Shown one piece after another: positions 25,450 to 45,702 of a stretch of 48,925 nt of DNA. Below the pieces are notes generated by a model. The model made no database searches, was not told the DNA's origin, and saw only the letters and a program-made list of their open reading frames with translations. Both the position numbers and the translations under genes were made by a program. Location of the stretch: the IMG/VR virus record IMGVR_UViG_3300045988_151382. One strand, given 5' to 3'. Positions within the stretch are counted from its first letter, which is position 1. Every line of letters begins with the position of its first letter. The DNA comes from a virus (lineage: Duplodnaviria > Heunggongvirae > Uroviricota > Caudoviricetes).

Positions 25450-25525
25450 TGGTGGCCCCTACCGGATTTGAACCGATGACCGTGCGATTATGAGTCGCCT
25501 GCTCTAACCACTGAGCTAAGGGGCC
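25450..25525 (-). tRNA. tRNA with CAU anticodon (Met or Ile2/lysidine type), CCA encoded
   Basis: Minus-strand sequence GGCCCCTTAGCTCAGTGGTTAGAGCAGGCGACTCATAATCGC...GGTTCAAATCC...AGGGGCCACCA; 7-bp acceptor stem, D-loop AGCTCAGTGGTTAGAGC, T-loop TTCAAAT. Confidence 0.8.
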
Positions 25526-28952: not shown

Positions 28953-29590
28953 TGGTTGCCTCCTTTGCGAAGCTGGGCAGCGAACCTATCAGCTGCATCC
29001 GCGCAAGCAGAAGCAACGGAATCAAAAAATGGATCATCTCCTGTATCGCGCATCGTCAAAGCGAATGCCTCCACCCCTTGTGCCTGTATTTCTACAAGGG
29101 ATGCCTTAGATGTACTGCTTTTCGCCTCGCCTAATTCGTTATGAGCGATGTTCGCTATACATGCGATGTCTATATCTGGATGATTAATTGGGCAATGGCT
29201 AAGAATTGCCTCAAGTGCTGCTTTTTTGCTTTGGCATTCCGCCACCAGCGCCCCGCAATTGCTTTCATATTCGGCAATACGCTGTTTAGCAGCCTCCAGC
29301 TCAACACGCAGCTTCTCAAGCGTTAGAGCCATCTCCATGTTCTCGTCCAGCAGTTCAATCACATCAGGATCGCTATCATCAACTACTGTTATGCGCGATT
29401 TTTTGTAATGCTCGTCAGCATAAGTTCGTCCAGTTTTGAAGCATCCGTCGTCCTCCATGCCGGAACAGGCATAAACGACATGTGATCCAGATATGCGCTG
29501 CATTGACATTTCCTCGCCACAAACAGAGCATTTAGGCGCTGGTTTCGGTGAAAAACGTTCACGTAACGTATGATAGTAAAGCTCGCTCAC
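28949..29590 (-). CDS. Ea22-like protein with Cys-rich zinc-ribbon-like segment
   Basis: 213 aa; CSVCGEE...YACSG..GC cysteines; C-terminal AAQLRKGGNQ shared with 29587..30396. Confidence 0.4.
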   Translation of the reverse strand: MSELYYHTLRERFSPKPAPKCSVCGEEMSMQRISGSHVVYACSGMEDDGCFKTGRTYADEHYKKSRITVVDDSDPDVIELLDENMEMALTLEKLRVELEAAKQRIAEYESNCGALVAECQSKKAALEAILSHCPINHPDIDIACIANIAHNELGEAKSSTSKASLVEIQAQGVEAFALTMRDTGDDPFFDSVASACADAADRFAAQLRKGGNQ

Positions 29591-38093: not shown

Positions 38094-38115
38094 AAAAAAG
38101 GCCCCCGAAGGGGCC
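38094..38115 (-). terminator. Rho-independent terminator (minus strand)
   Basis: Stem GGCCCC/GGGGCC with 4-nt loop followed by TTTTTT on the minus strand, just downstream of small ORF 38122..38244. Confidence 0.55.
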
Positions 38116-38121
38116 TAATCG

Positions 38122-38244
38122 CTACTTGCTGCTAATGTTTATCGTCACATTCAGAGCGTTATCAGTAATCTTCCAACCCTCTCCATGTGGCGTAAACAAA
38201 GCTCCAGTAACAACGATAAAAATACACATACAGTATTTTTTCAT
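38122..38244 (-). CDS. Small hydrophobic peptide (about 40 aa)
   Basis: MKKYCMCIFIVVTGALFTPHGEGWKITDNALNVTINISSK from internal Met of ORF 38122..38304; own terminator. Confidence 0.3.
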   Translation of the reverse strand: MKKYCMCIFIVVTGALFTPHGEGWKITDNALNVTINISSK

Positions 38245-38559
38245 TGTATGGCCCTTACAGGCCGTTTCACGGCATCCCCACCGACGAAAACAACGCGAGA
38301 GCAAGCACGGCTGCTTGTGCTTGCATGTACGGCAACGGAGAATCCTCCCCTAAAGTCGGTGCCCGGGTGCGAATCGGCGGGAAGGTCCACAGGTATTTTA
38401 CGATTATTTTAAGATTAGTAATAGGAAAGAAATTAAACGAAAAAACTCGTTTATTTTCACAAAATCAGTAACCTACCCACAATCTGTGAGTTTGCAGGCA
38501 CAACAAGAACCACAATTTTTTGAAGCATAATAGTGGACTATTATTACCTTTTGGGTAAA

Positions 38560-38840
38560 ATTAACTTGCTGCTTGTGCTTGCGTGGTTGTTTATACAACA
38601 ACGTAATGCTGAAAGGACCGCGAATCCGATCAGCACGAAAGAACCGTCCTCAATAGGGCGGTTTTTTTGTTTCTGCCTACCAATAAACCCACGCTATGTG
38701 GTTGTCTCTGTTAAAATCCCGCCGTATTGACATGAATGCGCCATTGGTGGACACTTTCCGAGCCGTAGCAAAATCTACGGTCGGGATTGGAACCCCGTAG
38801 ACACAATGGCGCATACCGCGTTAGCGGTTTTTTTATGCGT
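38560..38840 (+). ncRNA. Candidate regulatory RNA region upstream of the antirepressor operon; two intrinsic terminators
   Basis: Terminators at about 38644..38668 (ACCGTCCT/AGGGCGGT stem then T7) and 38815..38834 (ACCGC/GCGGT stem then T7); no ORF; repeated GATTGGAACC element. Confidence 0.45.
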
Positions 38841-39000
38841 AAAGCACTGCTACACCCAAATTATGGTGGGGCGTGCGGGGGAGTCGTAAGACTCGCCGGT
38901 TCGTCATTGTGTCCGGTAGTTCCAACCCTGCACGTCTCACCACCCAATGATTGGAACCTGACGGTGGTGAGTATCCTTAACCTTTAAGGGAATCATCACA

Positions 39001-39192
39001 ATGACAAACCTACCCCATGACTATTACGTCAACCTCGTAAAGATCCTTCTCAAGAAAGCCTCATACGCCGATAAATTCCGCCTGGCTGAAATCATCGAGC
39101 GCGAAGCTATGCGCATCGCCAGCAACGATAACGCTGTTTCTGTCGCAAAAATCTCCCTCGTAACCAAAGTAGTTATGGGAGGTGCAAAATGA
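39001..39192 (+). CDS. Small protein translationally coupled to antirepressor
   Basis: 63 aa ORF whose stop overlaps the ant ATG (ATGA). Confidence 0.4.
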   Translation: MTNLPHDYYVNLVKILLKKASYADKFRLAEIIEREAMRIASNDNAVSVAKISLVTKVVMGGAK

Positions 39193-40457
39193 AAACGCTT
39201 CCGACCGTTAACACCCTACAGCCTATCCTGCATAACCAAATCCCTGTCATTACTACCGAGTTACTGGCACAGCTTTACGGCGTATCTCCTGTACGCATTC
39301 GACAAAATCATCATGAGAATAAGGAACGCTTCATTGAAGGTAAGCACTACTTCAAAATTGAAGGTAACGAACTTCGAGAGTTAAAGCACAAAGTGACTCA
39401 AGATAATGATGTGAAGAACAAAAACTCTTTAAGAGATTCAGTTAATGACGCCCCCTCTAAAAGAGAGAGCGACGAGCACAGAGTAGTTTTAAACTACTCT
39501 GTTAACCACAAGGTAACTAAAAGTCACTCTGTGAAAATCGCCCGTAACGTTCGCTCCCTCATTCTCTGGACAGAACGCGGGGCTGCACGTCACGCTAAAA
39601 TGCTCGAAACCGATCAGGCATGGGATGTATTCGAACGGCTGGAAGACTGCTACTTCAACCAGAACGCGCAAACGGCCGCGACCGTAACCGTCTCACCAAA
39701 CAATGCTCGTGAGGTTGTCGATACGCTCAACGCTAAACCAATGTATTACGTTAAGGTGTGCAACAACGAGCCACTCACAACCTCAGCCGATGTTGCCCAA
39801 GCATTCAGCACCACAAACAATTCCATCGTTATGGCCATCGATGCGTTACGCATTCCTCGCACGGCTGCGGCGCGTCACTTCTTTAAAGAACAACGACCGC
39901 TGGAAGGAAGCGACCGCGAAATAACAATCTATCGCATGACAAAAGACGGATTTACCTTGCTCATGGAAAGTATCGACGGTCCAGGCGTGAAGGATATCAA
40001 GCTGGCCTACATTGAAGCCTTTAACGCTATCAGCAGCGTGTTAAAGGCAGAATACGAGCGAATGCTATACAACCGACTGTATCAGGAAACAAAGATTATC
40101 CGAACGGCAACAGAACATCATCGGCTATTAACGGAACCAAACTACCGCAAGACACTAATCAAAGAGTTTGACAAGGCGACGGAGAAAACTAAAGCGGCAC
40201 TAAATCTACCAACAATGACTAAAGATGATGTGATATCAGCCTTACTTCTTGATCTGCTCAGAAACGCCAGAGCACTTATCAGTTTTGACGAAAACCTGAA
40301 TCCTCAGCTCAAGCTACTACCACCGACAGGCAAAGTAGTCGACCAAGCAGATCACAACAGCATACTCAGCGTACTGGATGCAAACCTGCCAGCCAGGACA
40401 CTACAGGATCTGATAAAAACATGTGCTGATAAGCTGGCACAGAAAAGCAGACCATAA
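39189..40457 (+). CDS. Antirepressor (ORF6N/KilA-N-type N-terminal domain plus Ant-like C-terminal domain)
   Basis: 422 aa; N-terminal IPVITTELLAQLYGVSPVRIRQNHHENKERFIEGKHYFKIEG resembles ORF6N/Bro-N-type domains. Confidence 0.6.
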   Translation: MKTLPTVNTLQPILHNQIPVITTELLAQLYGVSPVRIRQNHHENKERFIEGKHYFKIEGNELRELKHKVTQDNDVKNKNSLRDSVNDAPSKRESDEHRVVLNYSVNHKVTKSHSVKIARNVRSLILWTERGAARHAKMLETDQAWDVFERLEDCYFNQNAQTAATVTVSPNNAREVVDTLNAKPMYYVKVCNNEPLTTSADVAQAFSTTNNSIVMAIDALRIPRTAAARHFFKEQRPLEGSDREITIYRMTKDGFTLLMESIDGPGVKDIKLAYIEAFNAISSVLKAEYERMLYNRLYQETKIIRTATEHHRLLTEPNYRKTLIKEFDKATEKTKAALNLPTMTKDDVISALLLDLLRNARALISFDENLNPQLKLLPPTGKVVDQADHNSILSVLDANLPARTLQDLIKTCADKLAQKSRP

Positions 40458-40465
40458 CTACAAGG

Positions 40466-40495
40466 GGCTACGGCCCCTTACTCTTTTCTCTCTTA
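40466..40495 (+). terminator. Rho-independent terminator after the antirepressor gene
   Basis: Stem AAGGGGC/GCCCCTT with 4-nt loop followed by a T-rich tract. Confidence 0.5.
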
Positions 40496-41197
40496 TCAAC
40501 ACCAGAGACTTTCTGAAAATCCTTTCGAATAGCGTCAGCATCACGCGCCAAGCCCATACTGGAACGTGTCGCCATATGACGAAAATGATCAACTGCCGGA
40601 AACAAAGAAATAATGGACCCAATAGCTTGCAGCAAACTTGCTTTTCTACGCATCATAATTCCACCATAACCGATAGCCACCCTTCAGACACAACCCCCCC
40701 CTCCCCCCATACAGGGTGCCCTTTACCGGAGTTCCGGCCCCTTCTCAAAAGCATCAAAAAAGCTCGAGATCGAGTACCGGAACTCATGCCACCAGATAGC
40801 TCCACATCGTTTCCAATGCTTCGCCGCCGTGTGCGCCCTGTGGCCCACAATCATGCCATTGGTCGTCTGATATACCTTCTTCTGCTCATTGAGCACAGGC
40901 GAGTTGTCGCACTCCTGCCTTTCTCAGACTCGACTTAGTTTAGATCGCTGTTCCTGGCTTGCGTCAGCACACTTTCCCCTTGTACGCATACCCGCGCGCC
41001 ACTCCGTCCAAAAACACCGAACCCAACGAAGTGGCAAAGACAACGACGCGAGCGTGAGTCTGAAACAGGCACCAGTAAAAAAGGGGTTGCAGGCGCAAAA
41101 AGATTTGATTATCTTTAGACGCAAGAAAGCCGCCCCAATCAAGAGGTGTCTTTTTAAATCCAGCCTACCAAGCAAGATTTAAATTTCAGACTGAAAA

Positions 41198-41222
41198 CCG
41201 CCCGGCAAGGCGGTTTTTGTCT
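41198..41222 (+). terminator. Rho-independent terminator (plus strand)
   Basis: Stem AACCGCC/GGCGGTT with loop CGGCAA followed by TTTTTG. Confidence 0.5.
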
Positions 41223-41266
41223 TTCTGGCGCTTACATTACACCACCATAAAACGATCCGTAAAGGA

Positions 41267-41539
41267 TCATTTGATCTCTTGTTCCAATTCTGACGACACT
41301 TTAACCTTTTCCCATACAAGGGTTTGCAGCCTTAACAGAATCGCATCTTTATCAAGGTGTGAAAGATCCTTAACCATATCGTCAAATGACAGAACGCGAA
41401 TGGCCATCTCAATGACCCTCGGCGGCTCCCCCTTCTCATATCGCTTATATGTAGCCAACGATATCCCAAATTCTTCGGCGGCTCGCTCCTGCGTCCAGTT
41501 CATCCCACGACGCCATAATTTCAATTCATAACCCGTCAT
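41267..41539 (-). CDS. XRE-family HTH regulator
   Basis: Start at internal ATG 41539 preceded by GAGGAGGA; sequence LKLWRRGMNWTQERAAEEFGISLATYKRYE is a typical HTH. Confidence 0.6.
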   Translation of the reverse strand: MTGYELKLWRRGMNWTQERAAEEFGISLATYKRYEKGEPPRVIEMAIRVLSFDDMVKDLSHLDKDAILLRLQTLVWEKVKVSSELEQEIK

Positions 41540-42146: not shown

Positions 42147-42446
42147 TCAGATGTTAAACGCTATTCGTTTTCCTGTGGGAAGCTCAACATCCAGGCTTAA
42201 TTTGCCTCCCATAGCTTCAACGTAACGCTTTAATGTCGCCAGCTTTAAATCATTTCCGCGCTGCTCCAGCTTTGTTACTGCTGGCTGGCTTATACCCATC
42301 GCCTCAGCAACCTGCTTTTGTGATAACTGGAGTTCTTCACGCATCATCTGCAAGCCGACCTCAAGAATCATCTCATCTGCCATTTCTTTAATTCGCGCCT
42401 GGCTTTCCGGTGAACGGCTGGCAATCACCTCATCTAATGTTCTCAT
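42147..42446 (-). CDS. HigA-like XRE-family antitoxin
   Basis: 99 aa; HTH LSQKQVAEAMGISQPAVTKLE; directly downstream of toxin-like gene with ATG/stop overlap. Confidence 0.6.
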   Translation of the reverse strand: MRTLDEVIASRSPESQARIKEMADEMILEVGLQMMREELQLSQKQVAEAMGISQPAVTKLEQRGNDLKLATLKRYVEAMGGKLSLDVELPTGKRIAFNI

Positions 42447-42799
42447 TACTTGCTCTCCAGTGTGTTCAGATGTGCTGCAAACTCATCCTCAGCTATACGC
42501 ACCAGTTTTTTATAAAACCGCTTATCGTTACTTTTGTCTCCTGCACAAAGAACGATAGCCCGGCGAATCGGATCGAACGCATAAAAGGCTCTTATCGGAC
42601 GGCCAGAAAACTGAACGCGAAGCTCTTTCATATTTTTGTACCGAGAACCTTTTACGGTATCGGCATATGGCCTGGGTAACTCAGGTCCGTAAACCTGTAG
42701 CTTTTTCAAATCAGCCAAAACCTTTTCCTGAAGAGCGTCTTCTTGCTCATTTAGCCAGTCGTCAAATCGCTGGCTAAAAAGTACCGTCCACATGCTCAA
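42446..42799 (-). CDS. HigB-like (RelE-fold) toxin
   Basis: 117 aa; toxin-first arrangement characteristic of HigBA modules. Confidence 0.5.
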   Translation of the reverse strand: MSMWTVLFSQRFDDWLNEQEDALQEKVLADLKKLQVYGPELPRPYADTVKGSRYKNMKELRVQFSGRPIRAFYAFDPIRRAIVLCAGDKSNDKRFYKKLVRIAEDEFAAHLNTLESK

Positions 42800-43328: not shown

Positions 43329-43624
43329 ACATCTGTTTTGTTATCAATGAAGATTAACCCTAACCCAGCGAAGTAACACAGCAGCGCCCAGGCTGCATAC
43401 GGAATGCTGGATCTGGATGTGGACTCCTTTAACATCTGCCAGTTGCGAACATTGCGACTATCTTTTAAGCCTAGTTTTTTGGCCAACTGCGAGCCGCTCA
43501 TTCCGGTCAGGCCAATGACTGCCCGAACTTCTCCACATGTAGGAGATTCCCATTCATCCGCTTTTTTTAAACAAGCCGGATTCAACATTTTTAAAACAGT
43601 ATCTTTATCCATAACCATCTCCAT
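43325..43624 (-). CDS. Putative HTH protein with C-terminal transmembrane helix
   Basis: 99 aa; HTH-like GMSGSQLAKKLG and hydrophobic AAWALLCYFAGLGLIF. Confidence 0.4.
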   Translation of the reverse strand: MEMVMDKDTVLKMLNPACLKKADEWESPTCGEVRAVIGLTGMSGSQLAKKLGLKDSRNVRNWQMLKESTSRSSIPYAAWALLCYFAGLGLIFIDNKTDV

Positions 43625-43979
43625 TTATTATATCTACGATGGTAGGAAATCTTTTCCTATGTGGCAATAGAAATTTACTACATTGCGTATAAGACAAGTT
43701 TTCTATGTCTAATAGAAAATGATGTTTCTTACGTTTTGTCGCGTTCTGATTGCTACTGTGTGCGTATTTATCGACGTTTATTGATAAGGTCCGTCCCTTC
43801 CTCCTGCAAAGCCCGGCCGTAGGCCTTATTTCGGCCTTATATAAATTGATTTTGTATAGTTCGAAACGTGCCGTTTCGAAAAGGATGATCAGGCTGCTCC
43901 ATGCCTCCGGCAAGTGCCGGAGGAGGTATATTTGAGCGTAGCGACTCGAACCGGCGCGAGCTTTAGCTCGCTGCAAGGG

Positions 43980-44255: not shown

Positions 44256-45104
44256 TTAATGTTGGAGTGATTTCCAGGTCTTTCTTAGCCTGTTATAACG
44301 CTGCTCAACGAGGGATCGTAAATATGCAAGGTCAGCACCTGGATACATGCCATCAGCAAATTCCTGGCTAACCTCTCTAGTGATTTGATGACGAAGTTCG
44401 GCCTCTCCCTTTTCCCGGACAAGACGCGCAGCTCTCTCCGCTGCTTTCTGTTTTGCCTTTATCTCTCTGGCCGTCTTCCTCTGGCGCCATACATTCTCCA
44501 TCTGCTCCTGAATAACAATACGCTTATAATCAGCCTCCGTTATCGCTTTTTTAAGCCGTTCGCTATTCTTCGCATTGAAGTAATTAAGTTTCTGGCTAAC
44601 CGCACGTCTCCATGCTTGTTCAGTAATACCAACGGTTTCCAGCAGTTGATCACGAATCTCTATTTTCGCTGGCCAATACTGTTTATTCACCCGATCCCAG
44701 CGACGTTCATAATCAATAAAACCTAACGCTTTCAGTTGCGACAACGCCCTTGTACAGCGCGTTATAGACTTGTTCCCAGCTTCGGATACGGTAGACAGGC
44801 CGCAAAAATCAGCCAACGCCTCAGCACTAGCCAGAACCCGCTTAGAAATGATGTTTACATGGTGCAAAATCGCAGCGATCACAGCATTAATCGCCCGACG
44901 ACGATGCTCGTTTATCCGGCGCTTCCGCCCTGACGGTTGATTAACGTAGAACGCAACCTCACACGTAAGATCACGACCATTAATGCGCTGTAAAGCATCA
45001 GATAACACCAGCGGCAGCTTGTGCGTATGGTGCTTTGGAGGCTGGAACTCCGGCGACAAATTACAAACGTAAGCGGAACGTAGAGACGGCATTGGTCTAT
45101 CCAT
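44256..45104 (-). CDS. repA: Replication initiator RepA, IncFII RepA1-like
   Basis: Segment CGLSTVSEAGNKSITRCTRALSQLKALGFIDYE resembles recalled IncFII RepA1 block; start uncertain (ORF open to 45236, internal ATG at 45104). Confidence 0.65.
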   Translation of the reverse strand: MDRPMPSLRSAYVCNLSPEFQPPKHHTHKLPLVLSDALQRINGRDLTCEVAFYVNQPSGRKRRINEHRRRAINAVIAAILHHVNIISKRVLASAEALADFCGLSTVSEAGNKSITRCTRALSQLKALGFIDYERRWDRVNKQYWPAKIEIRDQLLETVGITEQAWRRAVSQKLNYFNAKNSERLKKAITEADYKRIVIQEQMENVWRQRKTAREIKAKQKAAERAARLVREKGEAELRHQITREVSQEFADGMYPGADLAYLRSLVEQRYNRLRKTWKSLQH

Positions 45105-45136
45105 ATGTTCGCTCTTGCGTCCACGGAAAACCAACG

Positions 45137-45229
45137 TATAATGGGAGTTGTCGAGGCGCCCATGGATTGTTGTTGTTGGTTTTCCGTGGATGTCGCAAGA
45201 AGCCCGCAGATTTATCTGCGGGCTTTTTG
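45137..45229 (+). ncRNA. CopA-like antisense RNA candidate opposite the repA leader
   Basis: TTGCGT-N16-TATAAT promoter, 15-bp inverted repeat CCACGGAAAACCAAC/GTTGGTTTTCCGTGG, then terminator GCCCGCAGA-TTTA-TCTGCGGGC-TTTTT. Confidence 0.5.
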
Positions 45230-45702
45230 TTTCCATATCTGGTCAGTTTCCAACCAGACACCCACAATCATAACCACGTTACGTGGTTTTAAGAGAACTC
45301 TACCACAACACTTTCGGTCATGCACGAAGTCTCTCACTGATCGAACGATAATCCACCAGTAAAAGGATCTAAATTGGATCTCGTTTTGCGAGCATCATAC
45401 TACTGGCCTAACTCCAGTCAATGATTCCCAGCCAGAAACCTGCGGTAAACTCATCGTTCAGCAATATGCTGTCCGGCTTCAAAGATAAGGTGACATCATC
45501 CCTTAACAGCGCGGCCAGTTCAGTTAAAGGGCTGTTCTGATTTAATGCTGGCCACTCATACCTGGTAATAAGTGGTCAGTCTTAACACTCACCATTTGAT
45601 TGCACCCGTGTTGACGATTTGTTACTGGATATCAGACACGCTGGATAGCCAGTAGAAACATACCATTAAAATTATTACAATAATTGGTCACATGATTATC
45701 TT

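Follow-up and report, generated by a model that had tools for sequence, protein, structure and literature searches.

The window analysed here is the whole of the tailed-phage (Caudoviricetes) record IMGVR_UViG_3300045988_151382, 48,925 nucleotides in length. It is a myovirus-type phage-plasmid of about 49 kb with an IncFII RepA, ParA and HigBA, and in the gap between its antirepressor gene and a helix-turn-helix (HTH) gene it carries a conserved non-coding module. We propose that this gap is a divergent ColE1-type origin, RNA-primed and controlled by an antisense RNA, and that it probably works as such in the phage-plasmid, although with appreciable room for doubt. That the module descends from a ColE1-type origin can be said with considerably greater confidence. 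The proposal is built on the conservation of the module, the structure of its minus-strand RNA, the homology of its two ends to ColE1-type origins, its anatomy and spacing, and the invariance of a C-rich tract at its edge. The parts of the module are as follows.

40683–41290, minus strand: conserved non-coding module related to ColE1 origins, from alignments of E. coli, Salmonella, K. aerogenes, Citrobacter and Yokenella-like copies.
41236–41268, minus strand: predicted primer promoter, with −35 TTTACG (41263–41258), a 16-nt spacer and −10 TGTAAT (41241–41236).
40683–41229, minus strand: predicted RNA II-like structured transcript (the primer RNA) of about 540 nt, with a predicted start at about 41229–41226 and its end placed at the end of conservation.
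41188–41222, minus strand: stem-loop I of the primer RNA; read on the plus strand, this hairpin forms the antisense terminator.
41086–41226, plus strand: putative RNA I-like antisense gene, with −35 TTGCAG (41086–41091), a 17-nt spacer, −10 TATCTT (41109–41114) and a predicted start at about 41120–41123.
40998–41035, minus strand: hairpin H_A, with five compensatory base pairs (alignment columns 200–237, helix 12).
40722–40839, minus strand: block homologous to the oriV-proximal 118 nt or so of ColE1, with a GGAAAC-loop hairpin, TTTTTTGATGCT, GGGG (40738–40741) and GGTAAA.
40694–40708, plus strand: C8-T-C6 tract on the dC-rich template strand, corresponding to G6AG8 in the primer RNA and in the non-template strand.

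Conservation and limits of the module

Copies of the module were aligned from E. coli, three Salmonella plasmids, K. aerogenes and Citrobacter amalonaticus, together with one from a viral contig, the HTH protein of which is named for Yokenella regensburgei. Identity between genera is 88–91% from about 40683 to about 41330, compared with 68–74% in the adjacent HTH gene (62–71% in its first two thirds). The module has an invariant core of 70 nt, and is present in every lineage found, in at least four genera and also in isolates that predate the use of antibiotics.

On the right, the conserved region spans the primer promoter and reaches slightly into the HTH gene at its 3′ end. There, conservation at the nucleotide level stays above 90% for about 60 nt of the C-terminal coding part (41267–41330), the rest of the gene being at about 65%. 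This conserved end lies upstream of the predicted primer promoter, and could be an upstream element, promoter or regulatory, or mark a recombination boundary. On the left, the module ends in a mosaic junction at about 40683, 11 nt past the C tract. Among the relatives at least five unrelated neighbours are found there, including the 62-aa open reading frame (ORF) of the window, the antirepressor terminator directly, and a 214-aa gene, which suggests a recombination hotspot at the edge of the origin.

The module travels solely with the close HTH gene. More distant HTH homologues (54–57% identity) occur in other contexts and without it. A distant blastn search of plasmid and phage collections returned the same family and no ColE1 plasmids, and a scan of GTDB species-representative genomes with a 19-mer gave chance matches in unrelated metagenome-assembled genomes and nothing else.

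Homology to ColE1-type origins

The comparison with ColE1 was prompted by the layout: the RNA is long, a terminator converges on its 5′ end, its 3′ end is G-rich, and conservation stops there. A profile was made from 11 genuine ColE1-type origins (ColE1 and ten others at 74–86% identity to it) and run with nhmmer against both strands of the window. The best match is at 41283–41193 on the minus strand (E 1.4e-5). It covers the RNA II promoter and stem-loop I (aaaaaccgcc...ggcggttttt), with GATC...TTGAGATC...GTAAT aligned, and a pairwise alignment picks out the same region (z 5.5). The profile scores 14–17 bits at this place in every member of the family, and at most 9.1 bits elsewhere in 388 kb of DNA. 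In the reciprocal search, a profile of the module family matched the 5′ region of ColE1 origins with E values down to 1.8e-6. Two other matches of the ColE1 profile in the window were set aside: 29383–29418 (TTTTTTGTAATGCTCGTCAG) lies within a 213-aa ORF with no G-run after it and is taken as chance, and 38636–38672 is a generic terminator hairpin only.

The second region of homology is at the 3′ end. Positions 452–570 of the family profile (window 40839–40722) align in order with the last 118–120 nt or so before oriV in 10 of the 11 origins, the best with E 4.6e-4. As controls, 30 dinucleotide-shuffled origin sets averaged 0.1 match per set, with a best score of 3.9 bits against the 9.3 bits observed, and reversed sequences gave no match. 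The GGAAAC-loop hairpin (40804–40819) has three compensatory pairs, and the aligned ColE1 hairpin has the same loop. Beyond the hairpin the aligned stretch has TTTTT(G)TGATGCT, then a G-run and CGGA, and it stops at the A-run of the ColE1 RNA-to-DNA switch, to which the A-run at 40722–40724 is equivalent. The GGGG at 40738–40741 is the equivalent of the ColE1 G-run at −20. A test for the oriV site itself (...TGATGCTCGTCAGGGGGGCGGAGCCTATGGAAAAAC) gave a weak ordered match, the motif in the module being degenerate (TGATGCTTTTGAGAAGGGGCCGGAACTCCGGTAAA).

The spacing of these elements was compared with that in the 11 reference origins, with G-run positions in the module counted from 41226.

Primer start to oriV: 507–555 nt in the references; about 505 nt in the module, to the switch equivalent at 40722.
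Primer start to the end of conservation (40683): not applicable to the references; about 545 nt in the module.
Mid-transcript G-run: about +260–290 in the references; +248 in the module.
G-run before oriV: G6 about 20 nt before oriV in 10 of the 11 references; G4 at +486 in the module.
Long 3′ G tract: none in the references; G6AG8 at +519–533 in the module.

Taken from the predicted start at 41226–41229, the length from primer start to origin agrees with that of a ColE1-type origin. Like ColE1, pMB1 and p15A, the module has a predicted primer promoter in which two GATC sites surround the −35 and GTAAT forms the −10, with stem-loop I coming next, and here the similarity is significant. It likewise has a convergent predicted antisense RNA of about 100 nt whose terminator abuts the primer start, some 510–555 nt between primer start and origin, an oriV-proximal order of GGAAAC-loop hairpin, TTTTTGTGATGCT, G-run, CGGA and A-run, and no Rep protein encoded within it. 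It differs from them in having G4 rather than G6 at the −20 equivalent and an extra G6AG7 past the switch equivalent, in having no rop, mob or cer, and in belonging to a 49-kb phage-plasmid with its own IncFII RepA and ParA.

The similarity of the module to ColE1 has already been detected in a census of ColE1 plasmids, and then set aside. The census required a match by both a whole-ori and an RNA I hidden Markov model (Ares-Arroyo et al., 2021, PMC8683028), and its S5 and S6 tables mark 45–50-kb plasmids of the Murray collection as 'oriV site uncharacterized' (PMC8683028). One plasmid of that collection, pERR279269 (47,054 bp, E. coli), agrees gene for gene in its layout with the window family, and 12 RefSeq accessions of the family are missing from the final list of 1,035. 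In the literature, no paper was found that interprets this similarity or links phage-like plasmids with ColE1-like origins.

The minus-strand RNA and its predicted antisense partner

Both strands of the gap fold better than shuffled sequences (z about −3). For 19 distinct sequences, RNAalifold gives a consensus of −174 kcal/mol with 168 pairs on the minus strand, compared with −120 kcal/mol and 120 pairs on the plus strand. In the minus-strand consensus 99.3% of cells are paired, and compensatory change is seen at 10 pairs (34 cells), values reached by 1 of 500 and 0 of 500 column shuffles. When the structure was slid by one to three columns as a control, 0–2 compensatory pairs were obtained. 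The covariation is centred on two hairpins, at 41035–40998 and 40819–40804; variation across the homologues is limited, so that most helices are invariant. Where one side of a pair changes alone, the minus strand in many cases has G·U in alternation with G-C or A-U. Read on the plus strand these would be C·A mismatches, and the structured RNA is therefore assigned to the minus strand.

The initial annotation, made from the sequence of the window before this analysis, had suggested, among three possibilities, a non-coding RNA locus in a region that ends in a plus-strand terminator. A conserved structured RNA is indeed present, and a strong plus-strand terminator was found at 41194–41226. However, the main RNA is on the minus strand (from about 41229 to 40683), and the terminator belongs to its short predicted antisense partner.

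In the predicted primer promoter the hexamers are invariant and the spacer is variable among the 19 homologues. Two GATC sites (41254–41257 and 41265–41268) form an inverted repeat around the −35. A generic promoter scan missed this promoter because of the G at the second position of the −10. An A6 run at 40763–40768 (T6 on the minus strand), which sits in the loop region of a long hairpin predicted for the primer RNA, is A7 in 11 of the 13 E. coli-type sequences of the 19-homologue alignment, and varies in other genera too.

The terminator of the antisense gene consists of a 9-bp G+C-rich hairpin (41194–41217) followed by TTTTTGTCTTT to about 41226, and ends 3–7 nt from the predicted primer start. 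The predicted antisense RNA is about 100 nt long and has three stem-loops in the folds of six lineages. In Enterobacterales RNA I has three stem-loops, against only two in Vibrionales and Pasteurellales (PMC8683028), so that the ColE1 family tolerates variation in this respect. Within the 5′ region, variation is greatest at the apex of the middle stem-loop (about 41160–41185), and compensatory changes preserve the stem below it. Such a pattern would be expected of a kissing-loop specificity determinant, and the apex may be one.

Searches for other kinds of element in the gap were negative. Rfam, at gathering thresholds and with E up to 10, gave no family, and RNAI reached only 17–18 bits. The long RNA contains no conserved small hydrophobic toxin ORF of the kind expected of a type I toxin-antitoxin (hok/sok-like) locus. 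A repeat search found no iterons or tandem repeats in the gap, and the short inverted repeats correspond to RNA stems. A TCAGAC/GTCTGA motif occurs four times, in both orientations (40683–40692, 40923–40931, 41056–41065 and 41184–41192), and some of the copies pair in the predicted RNA. The sequence TGCGTACAA at 40982–40990 resembles the XerC arm of cer; it was dropped by eye as an Xer/cer site because the XerD arm is mismatched, no formal search having been made.

The G tract at the downstream edge

The interrupted C tract reported in the initial annotation is exact, with C8 at 40694–40701, T at 40702 and C6 at 40703–40708. A C6-N-C6 run is unique to this site in the window, 0.09 being expected from 100 dinucleotide shuffles. 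The usual form in the family is C7-T-C6, or G6AG7 in the primer; it is carried by 16 of 19 distinct homologues, which come from several genera, and by 12 of 13 metagenome contigs. A 68-nt query containing C7-T-C6 is matched exactly by 49 of the 72 E. coli copies. The +1 form of the window (C8-T-C6) is exact in one of the 72, and other C8 forms arise by a T-to-G substitution with the length unchanged. The initial annotation had allowed for a contingency (slipped-strand) tract and proposed that its length be compared among isolates; the comparison gave the same form across genera, and frequent variation was not seen. A tract that is nearly invariant across genera is conserved rather than hypervariable, and the contingency reading is therefore rejected.

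The tract occupies 14–28 nt past the switch equivalent, and after it conservation continues for another 11 nt before it ends. We suggest that the tract may be a reinforced or relocated anchor for an R-loop or hybrid at the origin's downstream edge. Of all the steps in the argument this one is the weakest, and it is held with less confidence than the origin itself. It is argued by analogy with ColE1 (PMC4412123) and with conserved sequence block 2 (CSB2) of mitochondrial DNA (PMC5027508, PMC3488243). In human mitochondrial DNA the commonest form of CSB2 is G6AG7 (37%), followed by G6AG8 (35%), and tracts of the G6AG7 type terminate transcription both in mitochondria and with T7 RNA polymerase (PMC5027508). 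The motif is thus identical, G6AG7 being the norm of the module family and G6AG8 the form in the window. As in transcription from the human light-strand promoter through CSB2, where primer formation involves a hybrid G-quadruplex R-loop, the non-template strand and the nascent RNA carry the tract, which stands at the 3′ end of a leading-strand primer that is known for CSB2 and proposed here. The likeness is one of analogy and not homology, with POLRMT in one case and E. coli RNA polymerase in the other. Moreover, termination at CSB2 has been demonstrated biochemically, whereas the module is known from its sequence, and CSB2 is polymorphic in length, whereas the tract of the module is nearly fixed.

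Flanking genes and coding potential

The genes around the gap are as follows.

39189–40457, plus strand: ORF6N/Rha antirepressor gene, left flank.
40468–40656, minus strand: 62-aa ORF (WP_004105254), a hypothetical protein in the RefSeq annotation of some relatives.
41267–41539, minus strand: HTH gene with a 90-aa product, right flank.

The antirepressor and HTH genes converge on the gap. The description of 40496–41266 in the initial annotation as an ORF-poor region between convergent genes is right as to the flanks, and also for 40657–41266, where there is no conserved ORF; but its left 160 bp or so (40496–40656) are the annotated 62-aa ORF. The remaining 610 bp (40657–41266) are without annotation in every relative inspected. 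The 62-aa ORF is absent or replaced in many relatives and has a weak match to PHROG 26284 (E 1e-3). Located directly downstream of the module, it is variable cargo, outside the origin.

Pfam and PHROGs searches with six ORF translations from the gap gave nothing credible, the two weak matches (E 0.016 and 0.044) being far above threshold. The longest conserved frame is hydrophilic, is frameshifted between relatives and shows no codon periodicity. In this frame 13 of 66 residues differ between E. coli and Salmonella, and substitutions at codon positions 1, 2 and 3 number 9, 6 and 7, compared with 26, 13 and 46 in the adjacent HTH gene. The ORF is disrupted by 1-nt indels between close relatives. 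An intact gene at this position, which had been proposed as a check, was found neither in the E. coli, Salmonella, Klebsiella and Citrobacter relatives nor in the Yokenella-linked viral contig.

Proposed mechanism

On the basis of these observations, we propose the following mechanism, in which both promoters, both transcripts, the R-loop at the tract and the use of the origin are inferred. A promoter just past the stop codon of the HTH gene (41263–41236, minus strand) would drive a structured primer RNA of about 540 nt leftward. An antisense RNA of about 100 nt (from 41086–41226, plus strand) would overlap the first 100 nt or so of the primer and end at the terminator, and kissing-loop pairing between the two RNAs would set how often the primer folds productively. 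The 3′ part of the primer would pass the oriV-proximal-like block (40839–40722) and then the G6AG7/8 tract (40708–40694), where an rG:dC hybrid could form a persistent R-loop, with possible help from a G-quadruplex in the G-rich strand that it displaces. The R-loop would then be turned by host RNase H and DNA polymerase I into a leading-strand start heading left.

Given that RepA, ParA and HigBA are the equipment of a low-copy plasmid, a ColE1 origin that was always active would be odd, and we suspect that its use is conditional, the module being a copy-up or lytic origin beside the IncFII RepA replicon. A fuller version of this idea can be put forward tentatively, although on balance it is doubtful. 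In a widespread family of enterobacterial phage-plasmids, the module would be a second origin of ColE1 descent, beside the RepA replicon, that needs host enzymes only, with a re-engineered 3′ end at which a hybrid G-quadruplex/R-loop formed on G6AG7 fixes the end of the primer. It would serve for escape from low-copy control (copy-up or lytic), gated by the antisense RNA or by transcription of the immunity/antirepressor operon. If this were true, bacteria would have arrived convergently at a counterpart of mitochondrial primer formation, and phage replication would have a switch of a new type.

Phage P1 has a plasmid origin, oriR, with RepA, and a lytic origin, oriL, with RepL, and the lytic origin needs its own RepL protein. 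P1 is thus similar in combining a low-copy replicon and partition with a second origin, and the window also has a P1-like immI block (isrK, C4, ant) beside the module. The two differ in that the lytic origin of P1 depends on RepL, whereas the second origin proposed here would use host enzymes only. In phage T4, oriF and oriG are similar in that a promoter-driven transcript is thought to form a replication-priming R-loop (PMC4412123). They differ in having a middle-mode promoter and a DNA-unwinding element, no antisense control and no sequence relation to the module. According to the census, cointegration of ColE1 origins into large plasmids is common, but it is not settled that the origins function in that setting (PMC8683028). 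Such cointegrates resemble the present case in having a ColE1-type origin in a plasmid of more than 25 kb together with another replicon. However, their origins are near-canonical and usually have rop, mob or transposons nearby, whereas here there is a diverged, origin-sized module with fixed boundaries in a phage genome.

If the origin works, phage-plasmids may carry a replicon that is protein-independent and RNA-controlled. This would bear on the passage from one-or-two-copy lysogeny to many copies, on incompatibility with the common small ColE1 plasmids, and on the dosage of cargo genes. It would extend the ColE1 family beyond small multicopy plasmids and would explain the 'oriV site uncharacterized' matches of the census. 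It would also offer a tractable E. coli system for a replication primer defined by G6AG7, comparable to CSB2, and an unannotated gap of about 600 bp in about 1.3% of complete E. coli genomes would gain a name.

The GC skew of the plus strand is negative (−0.03 to −0.23) in every 2-kb stretch of the window (1–48925), with no change of sign, and this holds even where genes run on the plus strand (35.7–40.4 kb). A skew of one sign, with the minus strand G-rich, agrees with unidirectional replication running leftward as the primer does, although it is no specific sign of it. As a marker of the origin it was rejected, because one sign throughout cannot separate two replicons, or replication from gene orientation.

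Evidence against the proposal and alternative explanations

Several observations weigh against a working origin. The highly conserved oriV motif of ColE1 (CAGGGGGGCGGAGCCTATGGAAAAACG) is only loosely matched in the module, and the middle 300 nt or so have no detectable similarity to ColE1. The Rfam RNAI model (RF00106) scores 18.1 bits in the window against a gathering score of 47, and matches none of four relatives, compared with 73.8 bits for ColE1 as a control. Both predicted promoters match the consensus weakly, and neither was called by the generic scan. The tract is out of register with the ColE1 G-run at −20, lying 14–28 nt past the switch equivalent, so that its role as an anchor is extrapolated. 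Nothing is conserved downstream of the tract, and hence there is no primosome assembly site. The IncFII RepA, ParA and toxin-antitoxin pair form a low-copy kit that would be redundant under an always-active ColE1 origin, and the one-sign GC skew is explained equally well by gene orientation or by a unidirectional IncFII replicon. Finally, the authors of the census inspected such matches by hand before discarding them (PMC8683028).

One alternative is that the module is derived from ColE1 but has lost priming, the RNA pair being kept as a regulatory or sponge RNA, for instance, or as a guard against transcription between convergent operons with the G tract as a block. The homology to ColE1 is clear at the two ends only, the oriV motif is degenerate and its −20 equivalent is G4 and not G6, and the plasmid has its own RepA replicon and partition system. 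The module lies exactly between the convergent antirepressor and RepA-HigBA-HTH operons, and G6AG7-type tracts do stop transcription in mitochondria and with T7 RNA polymerase (PMC5027508). We nevertheless consider this explanation unlikely, though it deserves to be taken seriously. The parts that have been kept are those that an origin needs, in the right order and spacing (a promoter with GATC, stem-loop I, the antisense gene, the oriV-proximal block and the A-run), the stop in conservation right after the tract is expected of an origin edge, and no target on which a regulatory RNA might act is evident. That the module is an inert relic, left by a former ColE1 cointegration and carried along by hitch-hiking, is quite improbable. 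Co-integrated ColE1 origins are indeed frequent in large plasmids, their function there being open (PMC8683028), but a relic would hardly be at 88–91% identity next to a protein gene at 68–74%, with compensatory base-pair changes, an invariant 70-nt core and presence in all lineages found, and no rop, mob or cer flanks the module.

Two further explanations, both raised in the initial annotation, are very improbable. A contingency locus would switch a neighbouring gene such as the 62-aa ORF by slippage in the tract, which does lie about 40 nt upstream of this ORF and on its coding strand, and which is C8 in the window and C7 in most relatives. However, C7-T-C6 is near-fixed in the homologues, metagenome contigs and E. 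coli copies, the +1 form being a single case among the 72, and many relatives keep the tract without the ORF. As for a decayed protein-coding gene, there are ORFs of 57–97 codons on both strands, and one minus-strand frame is open for about 66 codons in several lineages. Against this stand the lack of any credible Pfam or PHROG match, the extent of residue change in that frame with its flat codon-position spread, the 1-nt indels between close relatives, and the fact that no relative has an intact gene. The reading that we prefer is a divergent ColE1-type origin.

The phage-plasmid and other features

The annotation of a full-length relative shows a lambda-like head module, a P2-like tail module, a holin and an endolysin, together with a CI-like repressor, ParA, a plasmid RepA and a HigB/HigA pair. 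It is this combination of phage structural genes with a repressor and plasmid maintenance functions that identifies the element as a phage-plasmid. The replication and toxin-antitoxin genes are located in the window as follows.

44256–45236, minus strand: RepA, an IncFII_repA protein (Pfam E 2e-43).
42147–42799, minus strand: HigB/HigA-type toxin-antitoxin pair.

An AT-rich stretch at 43600–43800 (GC 0.34–0.37), about 450–650 bp downstream of repA, is a candidate oriR of the RepA replicon. There is no rop or mob on the element, it is typed as 'non-mobilizable', and the small multicopy ColE1-type backbone is absent; a small, multicopy, mobilisable backbone is a trait of typical ColE1 carriers and not of the origin itself.

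The region of the window is found nearly identical (95–99.9%) in 72 of 5,426 complete E. coli genomes, where the carriers are nearly all circular plasmids of about 48 kb. E. coli ATCC 25922 (plasmid NZ_CP009073) is one carrier strain, and the Murray-collection runs ERR279269 and ERR316950 are among the short-read sets of carrier isolates. In one of the 72 genomes the module is on the chromosome. The E. coli plasmid NZ_CP032086.1 (94,204 bp) has two copies of the module, and may be a dimer or a cointegrate. The family is also found in Salmonella, Klebsiella and Citrobacter, and three Yersinia myophages (vB_YpM_39, vB_YpM_41 and vB_YpM_44), on which no paper was found in the literature, bear the region as well. 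The plasmid pSLy3 was considered as a member and rejected, as it belongs to the SSU5 supergroup of about 100 kb.

Just upstream of the gap module, at 38094–40457, there is an immunity block resembling immI of P1, which ends with the antirepressor gene and contains the following features.

38094–38390, minus strand: ryfA-like RNA (143 bits).
38762–38834, plus strand: isrK.
38859–38947, plus strand: C4 antisense RNA.
39001–39192: 63-aa ORF in the position of icd.

The ryfA-type RNA, standing beside isrK and C4 on a phage-plasmid, may be a type I toxin locus. A tRNA gene is present after the lysis genes (25453–25525, minus strand, 67 bits), and its counterpart in a relative is annotated as tRNA-Ile.

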